From a virus: DNA of 64,000 bases. A program made the translations under genes and the position numbers. Below the pieces are notes generated by a model that was given only the letters and a program-made list of their open reading frames with translations, ran no database searches and was not told the origin of the DNA. Shown here piece by piece: positions 3,302 to 62,543 of the stretch; the first letter of the stretch is position 1, and every line of letters starts with the position of its first letter. Location of the stretch: positions 42,908 through 106,907 of the IMG/VR virus record IMGVR_UViG_3300021476_000423. One strand, 5' to 3'.

Positions 3302-3585
3302 GTGGAGACCAATCTTTCATTGAACGAGTTTTGAGAGACATTGCCGATATCAAAGTATCGATGGCTAGGATAGAAGCAAAAACCGAGAACATCAGTGACA
3401 GAATCGAAGTCATCAATCATAATACCACTGACAATGCTCAACGTTTGGCTATTCTTGAAAAGGCTCAAACTAGAACTACAGATTTCAGTGACTTTGCAAA
3501 AAGAGCGATGGTCACATTTGCCGGAGTAATCGGTGTTGCGGCATCGTTAGCGTTGCTTCTTAACTTTCTAGGACTTCACATCTGA
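3298..3585 (+). CDS. Coiled-coil protein with C-terminal TM helix (holin/XhlA-like)
   Basis: Heptad region followed by one TM helix. Confidence 0.45.
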   Translation: MSGDQSFIERVLRDIADIKVSMARIEAKTENISDRIEVINHNTTDNAQRLAILEKAQTRTTDFSDFAKRAMVTFAGVIGVAASLALLLNFLGLHI

Positions 3586-38073: not shown

Positions 38074-38982
38074 CTAAGTCCCGGCTGTGTAATCCTTCCC
38101 CCAATGCTTCTTGTGCTCGTTGTATTCCTTCACGACTTCGGCTGAGTTCCAGCCAGCGTCCTCAAAGAATTGGTTGGCATCAGCCACAATATCCTTGAGT
38201 TCAGCCATCGCAGTATTGAACCAGTTGACCTGAACCTTGAGAGCATCGCCAGAGAATTTCTTGACTGCTACACCGACCAACTCACCAGAGACATCATCTC
38301 CAACCTTAGTCGGTTTGCTAGGAGAGACCTTTTCTGAGACTCCTGAATTGGAGTCCCATCCTTGGTCTTTTGCCAGCAGTGTAATATCATCAACGGTGGC
38401 CTTCAGAGTATTGACAAAAGCACCTATGTCCTTTAGCATTGCCTCCTCACCCCAATGAGTCTGACTCGTATCAATTTTTGTCTCATCAGGAGTATGCTCT
38501 AAGTAGGGTTTCTTGTGAACAGAACACCATTGCGGCTTTTCGGGTTGGATTTCCTTCTTTTTGGCTGGCTCCTTAGAAGGAGTTAACTTTCCGCCTTCCC
38601 AATCAAACTCCTTGCCCTCTTTGTCGTAAACTTTGACTTCCTCTTCCATTTTAGTAATCTCTTCCTCTAGATGCTTGACCTCTTCATCCTCCTTATGGAG
38701 AGCAAGATTCATGACTTTTGACGCAGAACCAAACTTGTCTTCGTCTTTGACTGACTTGAGTGCGAGATTCATAACCTCTTTCGCAGAGCACTCCTCTTCC
38801 AACTTCTTGACCTCTTCCTCAAGATGGTAGGCTTCGTGCTCGGCTTCATATCCCATCGCCTCTTCCTTCTTTTTGCCCCCCTCTATCTGATGCTTGATAT
38901 AACCACAATAGGCATTGGGGTCGTTCTTATCCTTGTTCTTGGATGTGCAATCAGCAAACGAAGAGTATTCGCCCATTGGCAT
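38074..38982 (-). CDS. Acidic repeat-containing protein, candidate internal head protein
   Basis: FADC..KNKDK.DPNAYCG start; repeated SAxxVMNLAL and EEVKxLEEE; TTTAAATAG promoter. Confidence 0.6.
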   Translation of the reverse strand: MPMGEYSSFADCTSKNKDKNDPNAYCGYIKHQIEGGKKKEEAMGYEAEHEAYHLEEEVKKLEEECSAKEVMNLALKSVKDEDKFGSASKVMNLALHKEDEEVKHLEEEITKMEEEVKVYDKEGKEFDWEGGKLTPSKEPAKKKEIQPEKPQWCSVHKKPYLEHTPDETKIDTSQTHWGEEAMLKDIGAFVNTLKATVDDITLLAKDQGWDSNSGVSEKVSPSKPTKVGDDVSGELVGVAVKKFSGDALKVQVNWFNTAMAELKDIVADANQFFEDAGWNSAEVVKEYNEHKKHWGKDYTAGT

Positions 38983-39029
38983 ACTGAAAGAAATAAGGGT
39001 GAAGGAACTATTTAAACCCTAGCCCTTCA

Positions 39030-39458
39030 CTATCGCTCTTTACCTACAGGAAGCGGTGTAACGAGAACGGAGGCCCGATTGGTGTAGAGATTGAATTGTT
39101 TGATGGTTCTAGCCTTGATGGATTCCTGAGACTCGGTGACACCTATTTTGAGAGGTGACACTTCGTCCTTCGCATGGACTATCCGAAGGTCGTGGATAGA
39201 CTTGTATCCCATCACCGTATCGAGTTTGAAGTGAGTAGTCTTAGGTTTGATACCGAGAGCCTTGCCTATCGACCCGCCATCGCCACGGCTTATCTGAATC
39301 TCTTTCAGAGTGGCTTGGACAGTTGTTGCATTAGATTGGTCAGGAAAGATGAGGTCGGAAGCCTTTGTGATGAATTCTGGTTTGCCATTGTGCTCGGTCT
39401 CGTCGGCTATCTTTGCTGGAAGTGCGTCCCACATTTCAGCGAATTCTTTGCTATACAT
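39030..39458 (-). CDS. Hypothetical protein
   Basis: 142-aa ORF with TATA upstream. Confidence 0.55.
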   Translation of the reverse strand: MYSKEFAEMWDALPAKIADETEHNGKPEFITKASDLIFPDQSNATTVQATLKEIQISRGDGGSIGKALGIKPKTTHFKLDTVMGYKSIHDLRIVHAKDEVSPLKIGVTESQESIKARTIKQFNLYTNRASVLVTPLPVGKER

Positions 39459-39532
39459 CTTAGGATACCCCTTCTTTGCGACCTACTTAAAGTTGCCTAA
39501 CCTTTATTAAGGGTAAGGGGTATATCCCTATT

Positions 39533-39841
39533 ATGCGATTGTCGGGTGCAAAGGCTTCAGACGGCCATTACGTTCTGCTTTTTGAAGGAGAGCACCAAGA
39601 TTGCAAACATACCAAACACATTGCACGAGTGCTCGACTACACCTTCATCTTCTGCAAAGAGGCCAAAGTTCCTGTCGCTATCTACTGTGGAGCCGAAGTG
39701 CAAGACAAAGAAGATGTGGTCACTTTGGTCGGAGAGTTGGCCGAGAAGTATTCGCTGATTGGTGGCCTAGTGAAATCTACCTACTTCGAGAAATTAGCCG
39801 ATGCTCTTCTAGAGGTTGAGAATCTCACTCTGGAAGGGTAA
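39533..39841 (+). CDS. Hypothetical protein
   Basis: TTTATTAA about 24 nt upstream. Confidence 0.55.
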   Translation: MRLSGAKASDGHYVLLFEGEHQDCKHTKHIARVLDYTFIFCKEAKVPVAIYCGAEVQDKEDVVTLVGELAEKYSLIGGLVKSTYFEKLADALLEVENLTLEG

Positions 39842-39935
39842 TCACGATTACCTGTCCACCAAGAGCCGGATAGAACAGCGCACCTTTTGTGACGACCCCA
39901 TTTGTAGGGGGCGGCATGAAACTCTCTCGATTCAT
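39825..39935 (-). CDS. 36-aa peptide homologous to the MCP N-terminal arm (not in ORF track)
   Basis: MNRESF..VVTKGALFYPALGGQVIVITLPE versus MCP MAMTRESFPIVNTGALFYPALAKRIVELTMP; ATGA-coupled to 39932..40387. Confidence 0.75.
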   Translation of the reverse strand: MNRESFMPPPTNGVVTKGALFYPALGGQVIVITLPE

Positions 39936-40387
39936 ATCAACGCATCACTGATGAGAACATCGTAGACAATATTGACGGTGAAATCTATCTTGAAGATTGG
40001 CTGACCGAACATTCGCACTTCGTCAGGATAGGTATGACTCTTATACCACATATACACATAGTTGTCTGCCAACTGCTGTGTTGGATTGGAAAGAGTGTCG
40101 AGTCTGGCCTGAATCGATTGTTTGATGGCATACCTTTGCTTCACACTCTTTGCCCAAATCTTCAGAGTGAATGGAGCAGTCCATCTGCGTCTTACTGCCG
40201 GAATACTGATGAACTTCATTTCTTCATCATGGGCAAAGAGAGCGACTCTTGGCAATTGATTTATCTGCTTGGGATAGGTATATCCAAAGGGAACAGGATT
40301 GCTATTCTCATCCTTAATGTAACCCTCAAGCAACTCCTGAATAAAGAGGATGGCATCCTGACCAGTAGACCCACCAATCTGCACCAT
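39932..40387 (-). CDS. Tail completion/terminator-like protein
   Basis: YP....PRV, IWAKS..R pattern; follows the head-closure gene. Confidence 0.55.
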   Translation of the reverse strand: MVQIGGSTGQDAILFIQELLEGYIKDENSNPVPFGYTYPKQINQLPRVALFAHDEEMKFISIPAVRRRWTAPFTLKIWAKSVKQRYAIKQSIQARLDTLSNPTQQLADNYVYMWYKSHTYPDEVRMFGQPIFKIDFTVNIVYDVLISDALI

Positions 40388-40422
40388 ATCACTACTACCT
40401 ACTCAAGCCAACTATTTAAGGT

Positions 40423-40878
40423 CTAGGGGTCTCCCGACCCCAACTGTGTAATCTCGCCACCACTCTGCAAAGTCCCATCGGTGAGTATTCTGCGTATCAG
40501 AACACGATAGTAAACGGTGCGATTACTAATCACTGTAGGAATAGAATTCCTCACTTCCCATTCGATGTCCTGCCAAATCACATGGTCTCCAATCTGTGGC
40601 ACAGCGTCGTAAACCCATACATTGGCATAGTGAGTAGGAAGGAAACCCACTTCAACGTAGGAATATTCATCGGTTGTAAGATTGGCCACTACACCATTGA
40701 TGGTCTTGACAATGAAGGAAATGACGGGATGCTCGTATTCATCCTGCCCGGTAATTTGCTGAATTTTGTAGGTCAAAGGTAAACCAAGCATATCGATTAT
40801 CTGATGGTAAGTAAGCACAATGTAATCGGTCTCTTGGGCATTGAGAGGATAGGCTCCTGAAGGCGGCGAGAAGGCCAT
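40423..40878 (-). CDS. Head-closure (stopper)-like protein
   Basis: GQDEYEHP, PQIGDHVIWQDIEWEV. Confidence 0.6.
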   Translation of the reverse strand: MAFSPPSGAYPLNAQETDYIVLTYHQIIDMLGLPLTYKIQQITGQDEYEHPVISFIVKTINGVVANLTTDEYSYVEVGFLPTHYANVWVYDAVPQIGDHVIWQDIEWEVRNSIPTVISNRTVYYRVLIRRILTDGTLQSGGEITQLGSGDP

Positions 40879-40903
40879 AAGAACTTATACCCCACCGAAC
40901 TAT

Positions 40904-41086
40904 TTAAGGCGTATCCCTTGCCACCGAAATGAAGTCTTCAGCGAAGGCTCTATCGGTAATATCATGAATATGTAACACTTCTATACTATCGGTTGCGTGA
41001 GCCGAATCGTTAATCATAACTTTAGTAGATAGATTTGGATAGAGAACTACAGGAGTGTTGAGAAAGTTACCTCCAATCTGAACCAT
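40904..41086 (-). CDS. Small virion-associated protein
   Basis: GGTGA SD; two I(N/T)DxAxAxD repeats; MVQIGG start. Confidence 0.5.
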   Translation of the reverse strand: MVQIGGNFLNTPVVLYPNLSTKVMINDSAHATDSIEVLHIHDITDRAFAEDFISVARDTP

Positions 41087-41100
41087 CTAGTTTCACCTTT

Positions 41101-41469
41101 TTAGGCGTTGAATATCTCCTGAATGAAAACAATTGGGAATGACCTTCCGACTCCTACTGTCTGTTTGATGGTGGCCTTGTATTTTTCGCCAGAGTAAAAA
41201 GTCTTTGCATGGAATCGGATAGCGTTCTCGACCTGTGCGCCAGCGAAAGTATCTTGCTTGAAAATCTGATAGTTGGTTCCATCAACTGCTATATACTCAG
41301 TAACAGTCACACTGTCAGAACTCGTTACAGCACTAATGTCAAGATATCCTTCAACAATGTAATCGAAAGCCGCACCAGTATATTCAACAAGTGTGGTTTC
41401 CACATTGAGAACGACTGGCCCTATCGTTGTAACAGTATCATTTTTCGCATTGATGAAGAATGCTGGCAT
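41101..41469 (-). CDS. Beta-sandwich virion protein
   Basis: Structural-class promoter; beta-rich. Confidence 0.5.
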   Translation of the reverse strand: MPAFFINAKNDTVTTIGPVVLNVETTLVEYTGAAFDYIVEGYLDISAVTSSDSVTVTEYIAVDGTNYQIFKQDTFAGAQVENAIRFHAKTFYSGEKYKATIKQTVGVGRSFPIVFIQEIFNA

Positions 41470-41514
41470 TCTAGGATAGAAAGGCTGTTCCGACTATTTA
41501 AGGCTTGGCCGCTT

Positions 41515-43020
41515 CTAAAAGTCGAAAGCAGTTGTAGCGCCAATCGTCAAACTGCCCGGATTAGCCGACGACGCATGGAACGCAATGGTATCTCCATTAG
41601 CGGCTTGGGTAGCAAGACTGAAAAGACCAAACGAATCCTGTGGCCAATTGAGTGCGCCAACCGAACCTGCATATACATAGATACTCTCAACAAACTGAGG
41701 AGTTGTTGAATCGTGCCATCCAAACCAATATTGTCCTATAGCGGAAAAAGTGTAAACCGTATCGCCTGTATTGATGCCATAATTATCTGTTATGACAGAA
41801 AGTGCTGTTGGAGTTGCGTCGGCTCCTGCCGCTATAGTCTGTGAAGCAGTTAAAGCAATGCCTTGCGTGGTGGTTCCTGCCATGATACCTGCAAGAAACA
41901 AACCCATTCCACTTATGGTTGGCCCACTCCATGTTCCTACTCCATCAACTGCGCCTGTATATTCAAAACCACCAAACGATGTTGGCAATGTAATGAAGAA
42001 AGCATCTGTATTGGTTGGAACATCAATGATTGCGCCAAATGCCGTAGTAATTCCGGCTGGAACCTCCAAAACTTGGATTCCTATCCATGTTGATGTAAAG
42101 GCTCCAAAATTGACAGTCCAATTTGTTCCCGCTAAAACAAGATTTCCCGCAAGATTTTTGAATGTGGCCTGATTGATGGTAAATGTTACAGGTGACGATG
42201 GGCTTCCTGTAAAATAGAAACCGCCATTCAAAACTATTCCACCAGTGAATGTTACACTTGCGGCTGGAAGTTTTACAGTAGAACCAACTGAGATAGTGGT
42301 TGCATCAAATGTGCCGGGGCCAGTAAATATTACAGGAGTGGTTGAAGCGGGAAGAAAGGTGCCTGCCGCATCTGTAAAAAGAGTTTGACCAAAATCAATT
42401 GTGACATTTCCATTGATGCTCCAACCCACACCACCCAATGCTCTAGTGATTGTAGTGCTTCCTGTAACGTGGATTGTTCCATAATTAATGATGAAACCAC
42501 TGTAACCTGTAAGACTGTCGGAAATAAGTTGGATTCCTCTTGTGAAGGCACCACCACCAAGATTAAGCGTCAATGTGTTTCCTGAAGGAACACTCAAATA
42601 TCCAAATGAGTTCAAAGTTCCATTTCCTTGGAGTGTTCCAGTCAGATAATTGTGGGATAGAGCCTGAGTGATAAACACATCCGTTGTGGCTGTCAATGTG
42701 ATATTGCTACTAGAGGCAGTAGAGAAGCGACTTGGTGAGATAGTGCAATTTCCAGATGTTACAATCATGCCACCACAAGTGAGACTACCCAATACATTGA
42801 GAGTTGCACCCGAACTCAAAGTTAGTGTTGCACCATTTTCAATGACCAAATCATTATCGATGAGAATGGTGGCATTGGTTACAATCGTAATGTTCGCTCC
42901 TGAGAAAAGCGTCATACAGGTATACTCGGTTGTCTGTCCACCTGTTCCTATATTGGCCGTCTGATTAGAGAATGATGTGCAAGGTGAGACAAACTCTGGC
43001 TCTAGGACAAACTCTGGCAT
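41515..43020 (-). CDS. Beta-helix adhesin/fibre-like virion protein
   Basis: G/T/S/N-rich GATLTL-type repeats. Confidence 0.6.
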   Translation of the reverse strand: MPEFVLEPEFVSPCTSFSNQTANIGTGGQTTEYTCMTLFSGANITIVTNATILIDNDLVIENGATLTLSSGATLNVLGSLTCGGMIVTSGNCTISPSRFSTASSSNITLTATTDVFITQALSHNYLTGTLQGNGTLNSFGYLSVPSGNTLTLNLGGGAFTRGIQLISDSLTGYSGFIINYGTIHVTGSTTITRALGGVGWSINGNVTIDFGQTLFTDAAGTFLPASTTPVIFTGPGTFDATTISVGSTVKLPAASVTFTGGIVLNGGFYFTGSPSSPVTFTINQATFKNLAGNLVLAGTNWTVNFGAFTSTWIGIQVLEVPAGITTAFGAIIDVPTNTDAFFITLPTSFGGFEYTGAVDGVGTWSGPTISGMGLFLAGIMAGTTTQGIALTASQTIAAGADATPTALSVITDNYGINTGDTVYTFSAIGQYWFGWHDSTTPQFVESIYVYAGSVGALNWPQDSFGLFSLATQAANGDTIAFHASSANPGSLTIGATTAFDF

Positions 43021-43062
43021 ACTGGTTTAGATATGCCTCTTGGAGTATTTAAAGACTACCGA

Positions 43063-43536
43063 CTAAGAGAAGAAACTCTGCCCGCCAGTGTCTACAAAAG
43101 GACTCGGGCTTTGGTAATTCTGAATGGGGTCTATCTCCGAGAGCATGGTGTAAAGCCTCACCAACTCTGATTGAGCATTTCCTTTAATTTCGGCAGAAGC
43201 CGACCTCATCGCATCAAGTCTATTGATGCTGATATCCCCAAGTGTAGCAGGAAGACCCGAAATCACCCAATTGACGGTCATTGTCTCAATCATATTGAGA
43301 ACCGCCCGCCATGTTGCCCACTGCTTGGTAAGGCCGAATAGGGAATCCTTTGTATGGTCTCCAAACAATTGAGTGGCCTGTTCGTTAGCCTGTTTGACGA
43401 AAGTGTTGAGGATATCCACAGACGTAGGAATCTGCCAAACCAAATACTTACTAGGGTCGAAGGATGTCTGTTGCAAATTCAACTGCTTTACAAGGTCTTG
43501 GGTGTCACAATAGGCTATCGGTGTATTCTGACTCAT
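43063..43536 (-). CDS. Head-tail adaptor (connector) protein
   Basis: AYCDTQDL start, helical body, LGDISI. Confidence 0.65.
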   Translation of the reverse strand: MSQNTPIAYCDTQDLVKQLNLQQTSFDPSKYLVWQIPTSVDILNTFVKQANEQATQLFGDHTKDSLFGLTKQWATWRAVLNMIETMTVNWVISGLPATLGDISINRLDAMRSASAEIKGNAQSELVRLYTMLSEIDPIQNYQSPSPFVDTGGQSFFS

Positions 43537-43573
43537 ACAATCCTTTATAAGCGACTGCGACTACTTAAACTCT

Positions 43574-44098
43574 ATGGCCACTTACGCTCCCGACCATGAA
43601 CCTAACATTCCTGATGAGGAACTACCGGAAGAGTTCAAAGAGCCGGAAGTAGCACCAGAAACTCAACCAGAAGTTGGTCTAGATTCTGGTGGTGCTGAAC
43701 TAGGAGCAGGTGCAGACGAAGACCTTGAGGCTGAAGTGTTATTCCAAGTGGCTCACTACAGCAAAGAATACAAGGCTCCGGCGAGTCTTGCTGACGTTGC
43801 CTTTGAGATTCAAGAAAAGGATAGCGATGTTCATAAGGCGATGGAAATGGCTGTCGAAGAGGGCACTCCACTCGTTACACCCATCCTAAAGAGTTTGGTC
43901 GAGCAAGGACTTATCATGGAGACCGAGTTCGGCGGATACATCACTACACCCGATGGCGATGCAATGGTAAAGGAGTCAGATACCCAAAGCAAACTTGGCA
44001 ACACCTATGAGAGCGAAAAGCATAAAGGCATTCCCGAAGATGAGGGTTCTGAAGAGCCAGAGAAAGTCGAAGCGGGTGTTCCGTTCTTAACGATGTGA
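43574..44098 (+). CDS. Acidic protein with winged-helix core
   Basis: LKSLVEQGLI..GGYITTPDG. Confidence 0.55.
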   Translation: MATYAPDHEPNIPDEELPEEFKEPEVAPETQPEVGLDSGGAELGAGADEDLEAEVLFQVAHYSKEYKAPASLADVAFEIQEKDSDVHKAMEMAVEEGTPLVTPILKSLVEQGLIMETEFGGYITTPDGDAMVKESDTQSKLGNTYESEKHKGIPEDEGSEEPEKVEAGVPFLTM

Positions 44099-51764: not shown

Positions 51765-52619
51765 CTAAGCCGTTGAAGGCTTTGCGACCATATTCGTGCC
51801 CCTTCTGATAGTCCAGAAGTCACTAGCCAACTGAGCATCGGCTAGGTAGTCGAAGGGAATGTAGAAGTAACCGTGGTCTCCCCAACCAGTGCCCCATGAG
51901 TTGCGGCAGATGAACCACTGCTTCTCATCGTCATATCCTAGACACATGACTGCGTGACCTCCCAAAACAGGTTCCAAGCCCGAAGGCATAGGTATGATGC
52001 CTGTCGAATCTGCTGATGGACTCTCGAAACTCGCATAGACAGTGAATCCGTAGACGAAGGGATAGCCAGCATCGAGACAAGCCTTCATGTCGGCCAGACT
52101 GGTGATTTTGAAGTATTGCACAATTTCGTGATTGCTGGCTTCAACGTAGGCCGCTTGTGGCGGTTGGACAGCGAATTGGTTGATGTCGTAGGGCCAAGTC
52201 GTCTCATAACAGGAACCCTGACTTGCTAGAGTCTTGATTCCATCTCTTATCTCTGCACCAGAATCCGAACTTGTCGTTCCTTCGATAACCCTTTCGTTGT
52301 AGTAGACGAACAACCGACTGAATGCTTGGTCGGGTAGGCTGTCTTTAACCTCTAGAAACTGCAAAGCCCCTGCTAGAGCATTTGCAGTGCAACTACCAAG
52401 TTGTCCTTGGTCTTCGATGGGTGAATCATCGGAACGCAAATCTACCTTCTTATTATCGGAAGGCTGTGGTTTGGGTTTTGGATGGAAAAGATTGACTAGC
52501 CACTCGAAAAAGTAACCAATGGGTGTCTTCGGAAGAGGCTCTTTCACATCTTGACCCGCATGGTAGATGAAGTCTCTTTCGTCGGGCTTGTCCTTAATCC
52601 AACCATAAGAATGTGGCAT
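51765..52619 (-). CDS. Papain-like (C1A) cysteine protease
   Basis: DQGQLGSCTANA, SRLFVYY, GGHAV, RNSWG..WG..GY. Confidence 0.92.
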   Translation of the reverse strand: MPHSYGWIKDKPDERDFIYHAGQDVKEPLPKTPIGYFFEWLVNLFHPKPKPQPSDNKKVDLRSDDSPIEDQGQLGSCTANALAGALQFLEVKDSLPDQAFSRLFVYYNERVIEGTTSSDSGAEIRDGIKTLASQGSCYETTWPYDINQFAVQPPQAAYVEASNHEIVQYFKITSLADMKACLDAGYPFVYGFTVYASFESPSADSTGIIPMPSGLEPVLGGHAVMCLGYDDEKQWFICRNSWGTGWGDHGYFYIPFDYLADAQLASDFWTIRRGTNMVAKPSTA

Positions 52620-52673
52620 ACACTAATCATAGGAAGGCATAGGTATTTAAGGCTGGCGGCTGATAAAGTCTCT

Positions 52674-53132
52674 ATGGCATCAATTACAGGTTTCGGAACA
52701 GAGGGTGTTCCATCCTTCCAACTAATCTCAACAACCAACATTTCGACCAACAAAACAATCCAAATTCAGTCGGATGACGCTCTCGTTTTCAACTTCAATG
52801 CGGCAGATGGAACTTTCATCGGTCAAATCGCTTCACCAGATGGAGCAGGGCCATATGTCGCTTCTGGCTCTCTTATTCCTGTGCCCTATCCTACTACAGT
52901 CACAGTAACAGTGCTTGATAAGTCAACACAAGTTCAGTTGGGAATGACCACACTCCAACTCTTCGGCGGCGATGTCTTCAAATGCAGAGTCTCCTACAAA
53001 GAGTATGTTCCCATCGCCAATGGTTATGTCGCAGTCCTTCTCAACGGCCAACAAACCATCGTGCGGGGTCAAATCTACGGCGATTTACCCTATGATAATG
53101 ACGATGTGATTCCGAGAGGCGGAGCAGGTTAG
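52674..53132 (+). CDS. Beta-rich hypothetical protein, possibly virion
   Basis: Start MASITGFG at 52674, about 24 nt after a shared TATA. Confidence 0.55.
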   Translation: MASITGFGTEGVPSFQLISTTNISTNKTIQIQSDDALVFNFNAADGTFIGQIASPDGAGPYVASGSLIPVPYPTTVTVTVLDKSTQVQLGMTTLQLFGGDVFKCRVSYKEYVPIANGYVAVLLNGQQTIVRGQIYGDLPYDNDDVIPRGGAG

Positions 53133-53264
53133 GCTCTTGTTTGCGGCCCCTTTGCCGCATTTTCATGTTCCTCAGAACAATAGGCGGTGCGCCGCCAACC
53201 TGTTCCATCGTTAAATCCATCGACTCTCTCACCAATCCTCAGATGGTCAGAGTCGATTATCTTC

Positions 53265-53528
53265 TTACACACTCGACACTCTAGTATCAACTGTTCTCAA
53301 CTTTTCTCGAAGTTCGGCTCTTTCATTGGACAACCTTTCTTCCGGCCTATCGAAGTAGGCTTCGAAATTGAAAGCATTGTCTTTGAAGTATGGGTCGTTG
53401 GGGTCAGAAGAGAAGAAGTTAACGTGCCATACCTTGGCCTCTGGATTTTGACACTCTAAAAGACCATCCACATCTGTCAGAAAATAGTGACAGACAGGAC
53501 AAGGAATGTTGGTTTCTTCCATTGGCAT
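53265..53528 (-). CDS. Zn-ribbon small protein
   Basis: CPVC...CQN. Confidence 0.5.
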   Translation of the reverse strand: MPMEETNIPCPVCHYFLTDVDGLLECQNPEAKVWHVNFFSSDPNDPYFKDNAFNFEAYFDRPEERLSNERAELREKLRTVDTRVSSV

Positions 53529-53532
53529 AATC

Positions 53533-53667
53533 TCATTCCTTTGAGGAAGGCTCCAACTTTTCGTGGAAGCCTCTATCTATAGATACTGTTCCTGCTCCAT
53601 GACATAATGGACAAGTTTCGACACTCATTTCATGAACAATCAATTTATCTTCGTTTGTCAATTTCAA
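53533..53667 (-). CDS. 44-aa microprotein MKLTNEDKL...CPLCHGAG (not in ORF track)
   Basis: TTG start overlapping the Alba stop. Confidence 0.6.
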   Translation of the reverse strand: MKLTNEDKLIVHEMSVETCPLCHGAGTVSIDRGFHEKLEPSSKE

Positions 53668-54155
53668 TTCCCCGTCACTGGTTGAGATGGAAGTGGGTCT
53701 GACGTATAGGATGGTTCAGTAACGCCCGGATAATGGGGCGAAAGAAAGTAAGGAACCTCAACAACTCGACCATCAGCCGGAATGGTTATTGAAGAGAAGT
53801 TGGATGGCGGTCTGTAGACTAGGATGGATATGGTAGGAACTTCCCTTTCCTTTCCATCATCTCCCTTCATTTGAACAGATGAGATGATGGGCTGAAGAAT
53901 GAAGCCTGAATAAAGTGGCCCTACAGCAGTAGCGGTTGATAACACTCTCTTCAAGAGTCTGAAGGCCACGAGAATGGCTCGTGGAATGAAATTACCTCTT
54001 GCCTCAATCTGAACTCCCATCATGGCGTTCTTATTGAGTTCTCTTTGAGCCGCTTCGACATAAACGTTGAGAGGCTTACGGCCTACGAAAACAGATGGAT
54101 ACTTCAGAGCCAAGAACCCCGAAGTAGTTGCGGTTGTTGTGATGGTAGTTGCCAT
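53664..54155 (-). CDS. alba: Alba (Sac10b) chromatin/RNA-binding protein with N- and C-terminal extensions
   Basis: VFVGRKPLNVYV, IEARGNFIPRAI, G.EREVPTISI. Confidence 0.85.
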   Translation of the reverse strand: MATTITTTATTSGFLALKYPSVFVGRKPLNVYVEAAQRELNKNAMMGVQIEARGNFIPRAILVAFRLLKRVLSTATAVGPLYSGFILQPIISSVQMKGDDGKEREVPTISILVYRPPSNFSSITIPADGRVVEVPYFLSPHYPGVTEPSYTSDPLPSQPVTGN

Positions 54156-59244: not shown

Positions 59245-60165
59245 CTACGATGTGCGTAGTGAAGTCAACTTGTAAATTGACTCCGAATACGTCACGACCG
59301 GGGCATACCTAGCAGTTATTACAACATCTATCGAGTCGAAAGTTGGCTGTGGCCAGACATCTACACTGATTGGTCTCTTCGTTGCGAAGTAACCAAGCGG
59401 TGCATATGAGGCGGAGTAGTTCGACCCTGCGGCGGCAAGTATGTAAGCCCTTCCACCCGTAACCGGAATGTTAGGCGTTACTATTTGCTTCAGACCGTAG
59501 AGTTGTGGAGCCGACACAACGGTTCCAGCGCCTTGTGCATACAAGGGCTGTCCGTAGAAGAGCAGTGCGGCAAACTGAGGAATCCTAGCCAAGTCCTGAC
59601 GAGCCAATGGGTTCATCGCCATTGTGTCTGGTTCCAAGGCAAGATTCTGGATTGTCGAAATACCCTGCGTAATGTCGTCCACACCGATGGTTCCTGCGAA
59701 CACACCGGGGGTTCCGTCCATGAATATCGAAGTTCCAGTTACCGCAGTGCTTGTGAAAGCACCCGCGTTCAGAGCCTTCTCAACGTCTTGGTCAATTGTC
59801 ATGACCACCCGTCTCGCGGCTCTCTTCAACTGGTCTTCAACGATGTTCACTATCTGGTCTTCAATCAACTCTCTGGTGACTCTTACCCTCATGCCCACCT
59901 TGTAAGGTGTGACATTGATGGATGTGTAAGGCGTAAAGTCAGCCATAATCTCGGCTCCTTCTGCTGTCTTGCCGATGACTGCGGTTGACCTTGCACCTGC
60001 CTGCTTCGGAATCGAAGCACTCGCTCCGGTCTTGATGAAGAAGTCCTGAAGTAGAGGCTTCAATGCCAGATTAGGCATCGTAAGTTCTACTATCCTCTTC
60101 GCCAGTGCCGGGTAGAAAAGTGCTCCGGTGTTAACAATTGGGAAACTCTCTCTGGTCATAGCCAT
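59245..60165 (-). CDS. Major capsid protein (HK97 fold)
   Basis: AEGAEI, K.G....VTRELIED, MNP, LYGL.QIVTPNIP; follows protease, scaffold and decoration genes; GGTGA SD. Confidence 0.9.
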   Translation of the reverse strand: MAMTRESFPIVNTGALFYPALAKRIVELTMPNLALKPLLQDFFIKTGASASIPKQAGARSTAVIGKTAEGAEIMADFTPYTSINVTPYKVGMRVRVTRELIEDQIVNIVEDQLKRAARRVVMTIDQDVEKALNAGAFTSTAVTGTSIFMDGTPGVFAGTIGVDDITQGISTIQNLALEPDTMAMNPLARQDLARIPQFAALLFYGQPLYAQGAGTVVSAPQLYGLKQIVTPNIPVTGGRAYILAAAGSNYSASYAPLGYFATKRPISVDVWPQPTFDSIDVVITARYAPVVTYSESIYKLTSLRTS

Positions 60166-61286: not shown

Positions 61287-62543
61287 CTACTCTATGGCTG
61301 GCTTCTCGGCCAGAGGAAAGTTCTGAATCTCGCTTTCAGGAGCGCCCAATTCGCTCTCGCCGCCCATCCTCTCTAGGGCGTGTTGAGTGCCGCTTGGCAC
61401 TCGACTCTGCCTATGAATCTCTTCTTGCATTCCTTCATCATCACTCACTCCCTCACTAGATGAGTCCATTCCACAATTCTGACAGCGATACCAAGTCTTT
61501 GACCCTAAACTTCCGAGTTCTGCCAAAGGCCCACCACACTCAGGACACTCTCCCGCCTCTTCCTGCATTTCTGTCTTGGAAACTTCACCTGTTCCACCAC
61601 AAGATTGACAATCTGCACCACTGATAGGGAATCTTCCTAGTCCTTTACAATCAGGACACCAATTTGCCCCTTCATTTGGCTTCAATTTCAAAGACTGTAA
61701 AACACCTTCTTCCTCAAATTCTGCCGCTAGAAGTCTCACTTGCGTCTCTAGGACTGCAACTTCGACATTGGCCACTGCATTAAACGCTTTGATTACCAAT
61801 GGCATTAGATTGGGTGCAGAACTCTTTGGTGCGACAGTCTTACCTTCTTGCAGATGCCATCCTGCTTTCTGTGCGTTCTCTATCCTCTTCTCCTGAAGAT
61901 TGTCTAATGCGGCCTTGAAACCATAGGGCGCAACATCAGCATTGGGATAGGCCGGAATTGCAACGATGCTCTGCTCAAGAACGCCCGGATGTCGAGCAAT
62001 CATTTCAAGCGACCCACAACGTGGACATGGAAAGTCCAAATTATCGAGTGCGGCCTCCTCTTCCTTTCTTCCAAGATGAGTGATACAATTGTCACAGTAG
62101 GCTTGAGGAACAGCAATCTGAATGCTATTACTTTTGACATAGCCAAGCAGAATTTTCTCAATGAGACTTTTATCACTGCATTCGCCTTCCCACATAACCT
62201 TGCCCCCACCCTGACCATCTTCTTCAACCCATGCCTCTTCAACCTTACCAATGATAGAATCAACATGGTCTATGTCGTGGTCTTTCATCAATGGAGCACC
62301 CTTCAGTTGTGCCGCAACATCGTGAAGGTCTGTCAAAGGCACACGCCATTTGTTCCTGTTCTGGCTTGTGTCGATGGCCATTCCACCCAACTTCATGATG
62401 TGAGGAAAGACGCTAGGGCCGGATTTCTTGTATTCAGCAATGAGATTGGCATATTGCTTTGCTGTCATCATCGGAGCGATGCCCGACGAATACTTGAGTT
62501 TGAGACTTTCTCTGGTCTTTAGTTTGGGTGAGACCGTAGACAT
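61287..62543 (-). CDS. Prohead maturation protease with C-terminal Zn-ribbon modules
   Basis: NRNKW, LMKDH, IIGKV, SNSI, EQSIVAIPAY; then CPDCKG/CQSCGG and CPECG/CQNCG. Confidence 0.85.
   Translation of the reverse strand: MSTVSPKLKTRESLKLKYSSGIAPMMTAKQYANLIAEYKKSGPSVFPHIMKLGGMAIDTSQNRNKWRVPLTDLHDVAAQLKGAPLMKDHDIDHVDSIIGKVEEAWVEEDGQGGGKVMWEGECSDKSLIEKILLGYVKSNSIQIAVPQAYCDNCITHLGRKEEEAALDNLDFPCPRCGSLEMIARHPGVLEQSIVAIPAYPNADVAPYGFKAALDNLQEKRIENAQKAGWHLQEGKTVAPKSSAPNLMPLVIKAFNAVANVEVAVLETQVRLLAAEFEEEGVLQSLKLKPNEGANWCPDCKGLGRFPISGADCQSCGGTGEVSKTEMQEEAGECPECGGPLAELGSLGSKTWYRCQNCGMDSSSEGVSDDEGMQEEIHRQSRVPSGTQHALERMGGESELGAPESEIQNFPLAEKPAIE

Follow-up and report, generated by a model that had tools for sequence, protein, structure and literature searches.

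Immediately behind its tail terminator gene, the virus analyzed here carries a micro-gene of 36 codons. Judged by sequence comparison, this micro-gene is an ancient paralog of one part, the 5′ end, of the virus's own major capsid protein (MCP) gene. The micro-gene is very probably real and under selection, and we treat it as a real gene rather than debris because its counterparts in related viruses show purifying selection. For the explanation as a whole, in which this selected paralog of the MCP N-terminal arm (N-arm) encodes a peptide that binds N-arm sites, we see about an even chance. Positions refer to the window (the whole 64-kb stretch of DNA under analysis, which forms the 3′ part of a 106.9-kb virus record) unless another genome is named. 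The best structural matches of the MCP and the terminator suggest that the virus is probably an archaeal tailed virus. Two scans of GTDB genome contigs for a provirus found none, and a DNA search of the phages collection gave no match.

The micro-gene and its resemblance to the MCP

The 36-aa open reading frame (ORF) proposed in the initial annotation is present at the position given there and lies on the minus strand (Table 1). Read from position 39935 down to 39825, it translates to MNRESFMPPPTNGVVTKGALFYPALGGQVIVITLPE. The peptide GALFYPAL is encoded at exactly two sites in the window, one in the micro-gene and the other at the start of the MCP gene, and codon comparison confirmed that the two copies are identical in protein but differ silently in six of eight codons. 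The codons for RESF are identical between the two genes. Across the whole 106,907-bp record, the pattern RE...GA[LIMV]F occurs only twice. When the peptide was searched against the window by tblastn, its sole match was MCP residues 3 to 31 (E = 3.5e-6; 16 of 35 positions identical, with one 6-residue gap). We also compared all 1627 ORFs of 18 to 70 aa in the 106.9-kb genome with its 113 ORFs of 120 aa or more (blastp-short). The micro-gene/MCP pair came out best at E = 6e-8, and the runner-up (E = 4.6e-4) was close to the chance expectation for 1627 queries. Together, the tblastn and genome-wide E values rule out a chance match to the MCP.

TABLE 1 Features of the window and micro-gene orthologs of related viruses
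Feature	Position	Strand	Size	Description	Basis
Micro-gene	39825..39935	minus	36 codons + stop	Putative free copy of MCP N-arm	ORF list
GALFYPAL core of micro-gene	39861..39884	minus		Same peptide as MCP 60103..60126	
ATGA overlap	39932..39935	minus		Terminator-gene stop + micro-gene start	
Tail terminator gene	39932..40387	minus	151 aa	Predicted tail-terminator fold	AF2 model (pLDDT 75.6), Foldseek
Convergent gene	39533..39841	plus	102 aa	Conserved in relatives	ORF list
MCP gene	59245..60165	minus	306 aa	HK97 fold, no delta domain	PHROG, Pfam, AF2
MCP N-arm	60073..60165	minus	Codons 1-31	Predicted N-arm	Pfam alignment, AF2 model
Micro-gene template in MCP	60103..60159	minus	Codons 3-21	Segment matched by micro-gene	
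L031/L045 ortholog			20 aa	MITREQIPIVNTGAIFYPDI; start ATGA	
L034/L041 ortholog			19 aa	MITREQVPIVNTGALFIPS; start ATGA	
L033 (G001) ortholog			26 aa	MITRENLGSRSNEQVVNVGALFYPAF; start ATGA	
L038 ortholog			31 aa	MITRENLSAKGMKDNELIVVNGALFYPSLPA; start ATGA	
L039 ortholog			33 aa	MVTRENLSAKGMKDNELIVVNGALFYPALGGGD; own ATG one base past terminator TAA	
L040 ortholog			26 aa	(V)VTRENLGNRRNNELIVTQGALFYPG; GTG start overlaps TAA	
G002 ortholog				MVTREQVPIVNTGALFYPGVG; complete copy one base past HNH-gene stop; own ATG	

The alignment to the MCP that was first proposed holds through GALFYPAL but is not secure beyond it. The last 17 nt of the micro-gene overlap the 3′ end of the convergent gene. With this antisense overlap, homology between GGQVIVITLP in the micro-gene and AKRIVELTMP in the N-arm helix of the MCP is not demonstrable. 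In particular, the TLP of the micro-gene is not secure MCP homology because it is dictated by the antisense of the conserved TLEG-stop end of the convergent gene. Nothing resembling the rest of the MCP was found downstream of the micro-gene in any frame, and the complete HK97 fold (E-loop, P-domain, spine helix, and A-domain) is absent from products of 19 to 36 aa. By sequence, the micro-gene product appears to be a paralog of the N-arm only and no capsid protein.

The identity of the parent protein is well defined. The MCP matches "major head protein" PHROGs and scores above the cutoffs of PF05065 and PF25209; its AF2 model (pLDDT 84) has the MCP of Haloferax tailed virus 1 (HFTV1) as its best fold match, followed by HK97 gp5. 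Position 6 of the PF05065 profile aligns with MCP residue 18. In the model, residues 1 to 18 are extended and of low confidence, a helix spans residues 19 to 32, and the E-loop begins near residue 50. Because Pfam profile position 6 falls on residue 18 and the extended segment and helix precede the E-loop, residues 1 to 32 can be assigned to the N-arm. The copied segment is thus modeled as an HK97-fold N-arm: it is extended, lies N terminal to the E-loop and spine helix, and has no delta domain before it. The N-terminal sequence of the MCP, MAMTREQFPIVNTGALFYPALAKRIVELTMP, hardly varies among 26 related MCPs (66 to 96% identity), and YPxL is conserved in the wider MCP family. This family is small: of 1.84 billion cluster representatives, 131 match at E ≤ 1e-3, and all of these begin at the same position, without a delta domain.

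The micro-gene was initially described as coupled through ATGA to a tail-completion gene. The overlap is there, and the gene upstream of it encodes a protein whose model has a tail-terminator fold. The top Foldseek matches of this model were T5 p142, the P74-26 neck, T4 gp15, lambda gpU, and a tail chain of HFTV1 (9fkb), with a probability of 1.00, E values down to 1e-5, and a TM score of 0.75 to the HFTV1 chain. By sequence, the terminator matched no family in Pfam or PHROG. The hexameric gp29 of HFTV1 has been called a "tail completion protein" (bioRxiv 10.1101/2024.12.09.627619). The convergent gene on the other side of the micro-gene also has no family in Pfam or PHROGs; wherever both genes are present, their stops overlap by 4 nt (CTAG) or 17 nt.

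The locus sits in a block of about 6 kb (window positions 38074 to 44098) that is inverted here relative to two complete related genomes (G001 and G002). The block contains the 157-aa and 501-aa genes, the terminator gene, the micro-gene, the convergent gene, and the 142- and 302-aa genes. In G001, G002, and G005, the terminator and MCP genes lie on opposite strands. Only the last ~159 residues of a 688-aa ORF in G001 (51975..54038) match the 151-aa ORF at 40423..40878 of the window, and separate ORFs of 501, 122, and 60 aa lie upstream of the latter (40423 to 43020, minus strand). The tail module has therefore been reshuffled, the 688-aa ORF of G001 being replaced by separate ORFs in the window.

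We considered whether the region acts as RNA rather than as a coding sequence. No Rfam families were found in the window and the predicted RNA fold of the micro-gene region is unremarkable (z = −0.12), and we rejected an RNA element as the explanation. Anti-Shine-Dalgarno complementarity upstream of the micro-gene resembles that of long ORFs (mean, −4.5 kcal/mol, versus −4.1 for long ORFs and −2.6 for random sequence). It is weak, indirect evidence of translation, to which the overlapping or abutting start codons can be added. Gene callers have already listed the 31- to 36-aa versions in JGI/IMG, ENA, or Logan, and in IMG the 31- and 33-aa relatives go under the name "hypothetical protein." The peptide sequence is present in the ESM Atlas, without relatives. 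Tryptic digestion of the product would give ESFMPPPTNGVVTK and the C-terminal GALFYPALGGQVIVITLPE.

Orthologs behind the terminator gene of related viruses

Using the terminator protein as an anchor, we collected syntenic loci from IMG/VR and JGI metagenome contigs. Eight distinct orthologs of 19 to 36 aa follow the same terminator gene in related viruses (Table 1). They share the core M-x-T-R-E, a variable in-frame linker, and V-x-x-G-A-L-F-Y-P, a pattern that corresponds to MCP residues 3 to 19, the extended stretch of its N-arm; G-A-[LI]-F-[YI]-P is present in all eight. Beyond this core, the C-terminal extent varies greatly, which accounts for total lengths from 19 to 36 aa. Five of the eight orthologs start with the ATGA overlap, L039 and G002 have TAAaATG (in G002 after an HNH gene), and L040 has GTGgTAA. 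Each of the complete genomes G000, G001, and G002 contains exactly one micro-gene and one MCP gene. Scanning viral contigs for the pattern returned no orthologs beyond those found through the terminator anchor.

The N-terminal motif conserved across relatives is T-R-E and not R-E-S, which had been put forward at first as the kept motif. We also considered a prohead-protease site shared through TRES, the one hint of the initially suggested titration of the prohead protease, and rejected it: since TRES is missing from the N terminus of the protease in relatives, a shared cleavage site is unsupported. In the window, a 418-aa head protein (61287 to 62543, minus strand) has a weak match to a "major head and protease" PHROG over residues 81 to 141, and its C-terminal half contains several zinc-ribbon motifs. 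The KTRESL at its N terminus is similar to the MCP/micro-gene motif but is not conserved in relatives.

As to absence or frame disruption in close relatives, the reading frame is kept in eight lineages, but two groups lack the gene. In the close lineage L048, the convergent gene comes directly after the terminator gene, and in the distant G005 group (37% terminator identity), only ATGAGGTGA is found at the locus. Because it is absent from these two groups, the micro-gene is dispensable or replaceable rather than essential. In two members of the G005 clade (L029 and L035), the MCP gene is convergent with the terminator gene and lies ~400 bp downstream of it, with a Cys-rich (Zn-ribbon-like) ORF of 126 aa between the two.

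A further genome, G002, carries an HNH endonuclease gene (phrog_2255; E = 3e-5) between the terminator gene and a complete copy of the micro-gene. The insertion point falls at micro-gene codons 3 to 4, with a 10-nt remnant of the old start, and only an 11-codon stub remains directly after the terminator gene. Gene loss in G002-type genomes is ruled out by the complete copy behind the inserted gene. An endonuclease-like ORF (phrog_2340) also lies just beyond the micro-gene, on the minus strand in G002 and on the plus strand in L034; the endonuclease clusters around the micro-gene span positions 3436 to 4451 of L030 (G002) and 3435 to 4094 of L034. The ORF list shows no endonuclease gene adjoining the micro-gene in the window, and such ORFs flank it only in G002 and L034, so we set aside the possibility that the micro-gene is homing-endonuclease cargo.

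Selection on the peptide and possible traces of exchange with the MCP gene

The most direct view of selection comes from comparing L038 with L039 over the whole ORF, without choice of blocks and hence free of hand-alignment bias. The two differ at 17 nucleotides, distributed 2/1/14 over the three codon positions. This corresponds to 13.7 synonymous and 3.3 nonsynonymous changes (pS = 0.71, pN = 0.05; binomial P = 3e-7), compared with a pS of 0.76 and a pN of 0.22 in the terminator gene of the same pair. Ten linker codons that have no counterpart in the MCP carry three silent changes and no replacements. Because this MCP-less linker is also conserved as protein while changing silently, conversion from the MCP gene cannot explain the pattern.

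A GY94-type codon model run on the terminator-gene tree gave omega values of 0.25 to 0.28 for seven taxa (likelihood ratio test [LRT] statistic, 22 to 25; P ~ 1e-6) and of 0.15 for eight taxa (LRT, 46; P ~ 1e-11; omega = 1 rejected), estimates that come from very short sequences in a hand-made codon alignment, which could bias omega downward. The terminator gene's own omega is likewise 0.15. The values thus lie at 0.15 to 0.28 rather than near 1. Antisense coding is ruled out as the source of conservation, as the antisense frame of L033 contains a stop. The sense frame is the constrained one because variation falls at sense third positions, which are antisense first positions.

The micro-gene behind the HNH gene in G002 is a second case in which the peptide outlasted its codons. 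Compared with the sister lineage L034, 11 of 17 third positions differ and 16 of 18 residues are the same, whereas in the terminator gene of this pair only 36 of 156 third positions differ. Given this excess of third-position changes, the copy was recoded or imported with its peptide preserved. The initial suggestion that selection has acted on the peptide, rather than DNA having been duplicated recently, is therefore upheld by eight ortholog lineages in frame, the low omega (0.15; P ~ 1e-11), the retained starts, and the recoded copy kept after endonuclease insertion.

A start codon is always present, in three arrangements and at two frame offsets to the terminator gene. These arrangements and offsets point to independent or coupled initiation and argue against a frameshift fusion, in which the micro-gene would be a C-terminal extension of the terminator made by programmed frameshifting at the ATGA junction. 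The frame upstream of the ATG is indeed open for tens of codons in L028 and L031. Nevertheless, a conserved slippery heptamer is missing, most lineages have an offset of +2 to the terminator but L039 has +1, and in G002 a whole HNH gene separates the two ORFs. With a start codon retained in every case, we consider such an extension extremely unlikely.

Some stretches of the micro-gene seem to have stayed in contact with the MCP gene; pairs from the same genome were available for G000, G001, and G002 only. In the window, both genes have ESF in identical codons, whereas most relatives have EQF in the MCP and ENL or EQ[IV] in the micro-gene. In G001, 20 bases of the micro-gene (encoding GALFYPA) are identical to that genome's own MCP gene. 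The short forms carry PIVNT exactly as in the MCP, yet the terminator tree places them among the long-linker forms. These shared patches would be explained either by occasional conversion over short tracts or by selection that keeps up the mimicry. When the short forms are compared with 17 MCP 5′ ends, about 90% of first and second positions agree, but only 2 to 10 of 17 third positions do. Recent conversion from the MCP gene was rejected as the sole cause, since third positions are near random and the linker has no MCP counterpart.

These patches of DNA identical to the genome's own MCP gene would also suit a nonfunctional relic, left over from the 5′ part of an MCP gene that had been duplicated or carried by an endonuclease, and perhaps refreshed by conversion. 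Such an origin would fit a gene that is a fragment only, whose ragged 3′ end is different in every lineage and around which endonuclease genes cluster in G002 and L034. Neutrality is nonetheless rejected by the omega of 0.15 and by the 2/1/14 pattern at saturated silent sites. The RE-to-GA spacer is 7, 13, 14, or 16 residues long, and every length change is in frame. In addition, a linker missing from the MCP is conserved, starts have been re-created in three ways, and third positions are near random relative to all sampled MCPs. The relic reading is largely refuted by these sequence-based selection tests, and we rate it as very unlikely; relic and frameshift fusion are both unlikely explanations of the micro-gene.

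Possible roles of the peptide and the nearest known systems

In HK97-fold lattices, the N-arm reaches onto neighboring subunits, and in procapsids it meets the scaffold. A peptide whose likeness to the extended MCP N-arm has been maintained most plausibly binds the partners of that arm. We propose that the peptide would be translated late in infection and in few copies, through coupling to the terminator gene, and that, once free, it would bind the docking place of the MCP N-arm, either on a neighboring MCP subunit or on the scaffold or portal partner of the arm. In the version that we prefer, the peptide would serve as a low-copy "spare arm" at the portal vertex. With the portal in the place of a penton, the surrounding hexamers would have N-arm sites that receive no arms from a penton, and the peptide would fill these sites. 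A low-copy role is favored because the gene is tied to the hexameric, low-copy terminator and not to the MCP, which is present in hundreds of copies. As the terminator makes no contact with the capsid shell, its genomic coupling to the micro-gene is no direct pointer to the portal vertex.

Support for a role at the portal comes by analogy. In HFTV1, the "portal interface protein" gp21 forms a pentameric ring between the portal and the MCPs (bioRxiv 10.1101/2024.12.09.627619). In T4, residue Met98 of the gp23 N-arm is part of the portal anchor (PMC7136217). The two structures make a portal-interface role credible, without demonstrating it. HFTV1, an archaeal tailed virus, is the closest relative with a solved structure: its MCP and terminator match those described here best in fold, and its gp21 fills the role that we propose. 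The analogy is functional only: gp21 has 74 to 82 aa, and its gene belongs to the head module instead of following the terminator gene. It has no sequence similarity to the micro-gene product (Smith-Waterman score below the shuffle mean) or to its own MCP, and neither gp19 nor gp30 of HFTV1 resembles the micro-gene product. The wider reading is that tailed viruses keep "spare-part" micro-genes, copies of lattice-protein arms that are built in where symmetry breaks, and that the peptide described here is a virion component at the portal. We put this forward tentatively, as possible rather than probable.

The same evidence for a selected N-arm mimic applies equally to an assembly regulator or dominant-negative microProtein. 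Such a peptide would be no part of the virion; it would compete with the MCP N-arm for the scaffold, the protease, or a neighboring subunit and would thereby delay or tune capsid assembly or poison co-infecting relatives. A mimic of this kind would cross-react, given the nearly invariant MCP N terminus in 26 relatives, and the loss of the gene in some lineages suits an accessory role. However, the peptide would also disturb the virus's own identical N-arm, and a brake on head assembly would hardly be expected to be coupled to a late tail gene. We consider a regulator of this type unlikely.

Capsid proteins are common triggers of prokaryotic immunity, and STAND receptors have reportedly been found to sense core phage proteins (according to a 2026 preprint). 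The free peptide could accordingly be imagined as a counterdefense decoy that titrates or preempts host sensors of the MCP, possibly of its N terminus. Its patchy distribution and variable linker would suit an accessory gene in an arms race. On the other hand, conservation is strongest on exactly the MCP-like residues, omega is low with no sign of diversifying selection, and coupling to a late tail gene places expression after the onset of MCP synthesis. A decoy function therefore seems quite improbable.

Taking the micro-gene product as an N-arm paralog that docks in N-arm sites, we compared it with known systems. MicroProteins (miPs) are a eukaryotic concept: small proteins homologous to one interaction motif, such as Id or LITTLE ZIPPER. 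Like them, the micro-gene product is a short stand-alone paralog of only the interaction segment of a larger protein in the same genome, with the other domains absent. Unlike it, known miPs regulate transcription factors or enzymes through nonproductive dimers; the micro-gene product has a viral capsid protein as its parent and copies an extended arm of 17 to 20 residues. A second parallel is the C-terminal capsid-binding motif that CpmB of SaPI1 is said to have in common with the scaffolding protein of phage 80alpha. There, too, a short capsid assembly motif has been copied into a small protein, and CpmB then binds the capsid protein. The difference is that CpmB belongs to a phage-hijacking satellite and copies a scaffold, while in the present case a virus mimics the N-arm of its own MCP. 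The vertex protein gp24 of T4 is a paralog of the MCP gp23 with a full-length HK97 fold. It resembles our case in that a capsid protein paralog has been kept (gp24 fills special lattice positions), but here only the first ~20 MCP residues are duplicated. Conceptually, the nearest precedents are miPs and the motif that SaPI1 CpmB shares with the 80alpha scaffold. Full-text literature searches turned up no description of a virus-encoded free copy of a capsid N-arm.

Genes this short usually go unannotated, and fragments of structural genes are usually dismissed as debris. Here, a 19- to 36-codon copy of the interlocking arm of a capsid protein is demonstrably selected and has been preserved, recoded, through the insertion of a homing endonuclease. 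The case also shows that functional viral microproteins can be found productively by checking small ORFs for self-homology to structural proteins. If the peptide docks in N-arm sites, it would represent a new answer of HK97-fold viruses to the portal symmetry break or to the control of assembly, and this natural competitor peptide would be a handle for probing N-arm contacts. If the spare-part reading is true, the peptide would complete the capsid around the portal and belong to a general, undescribed class of structural microproteins.
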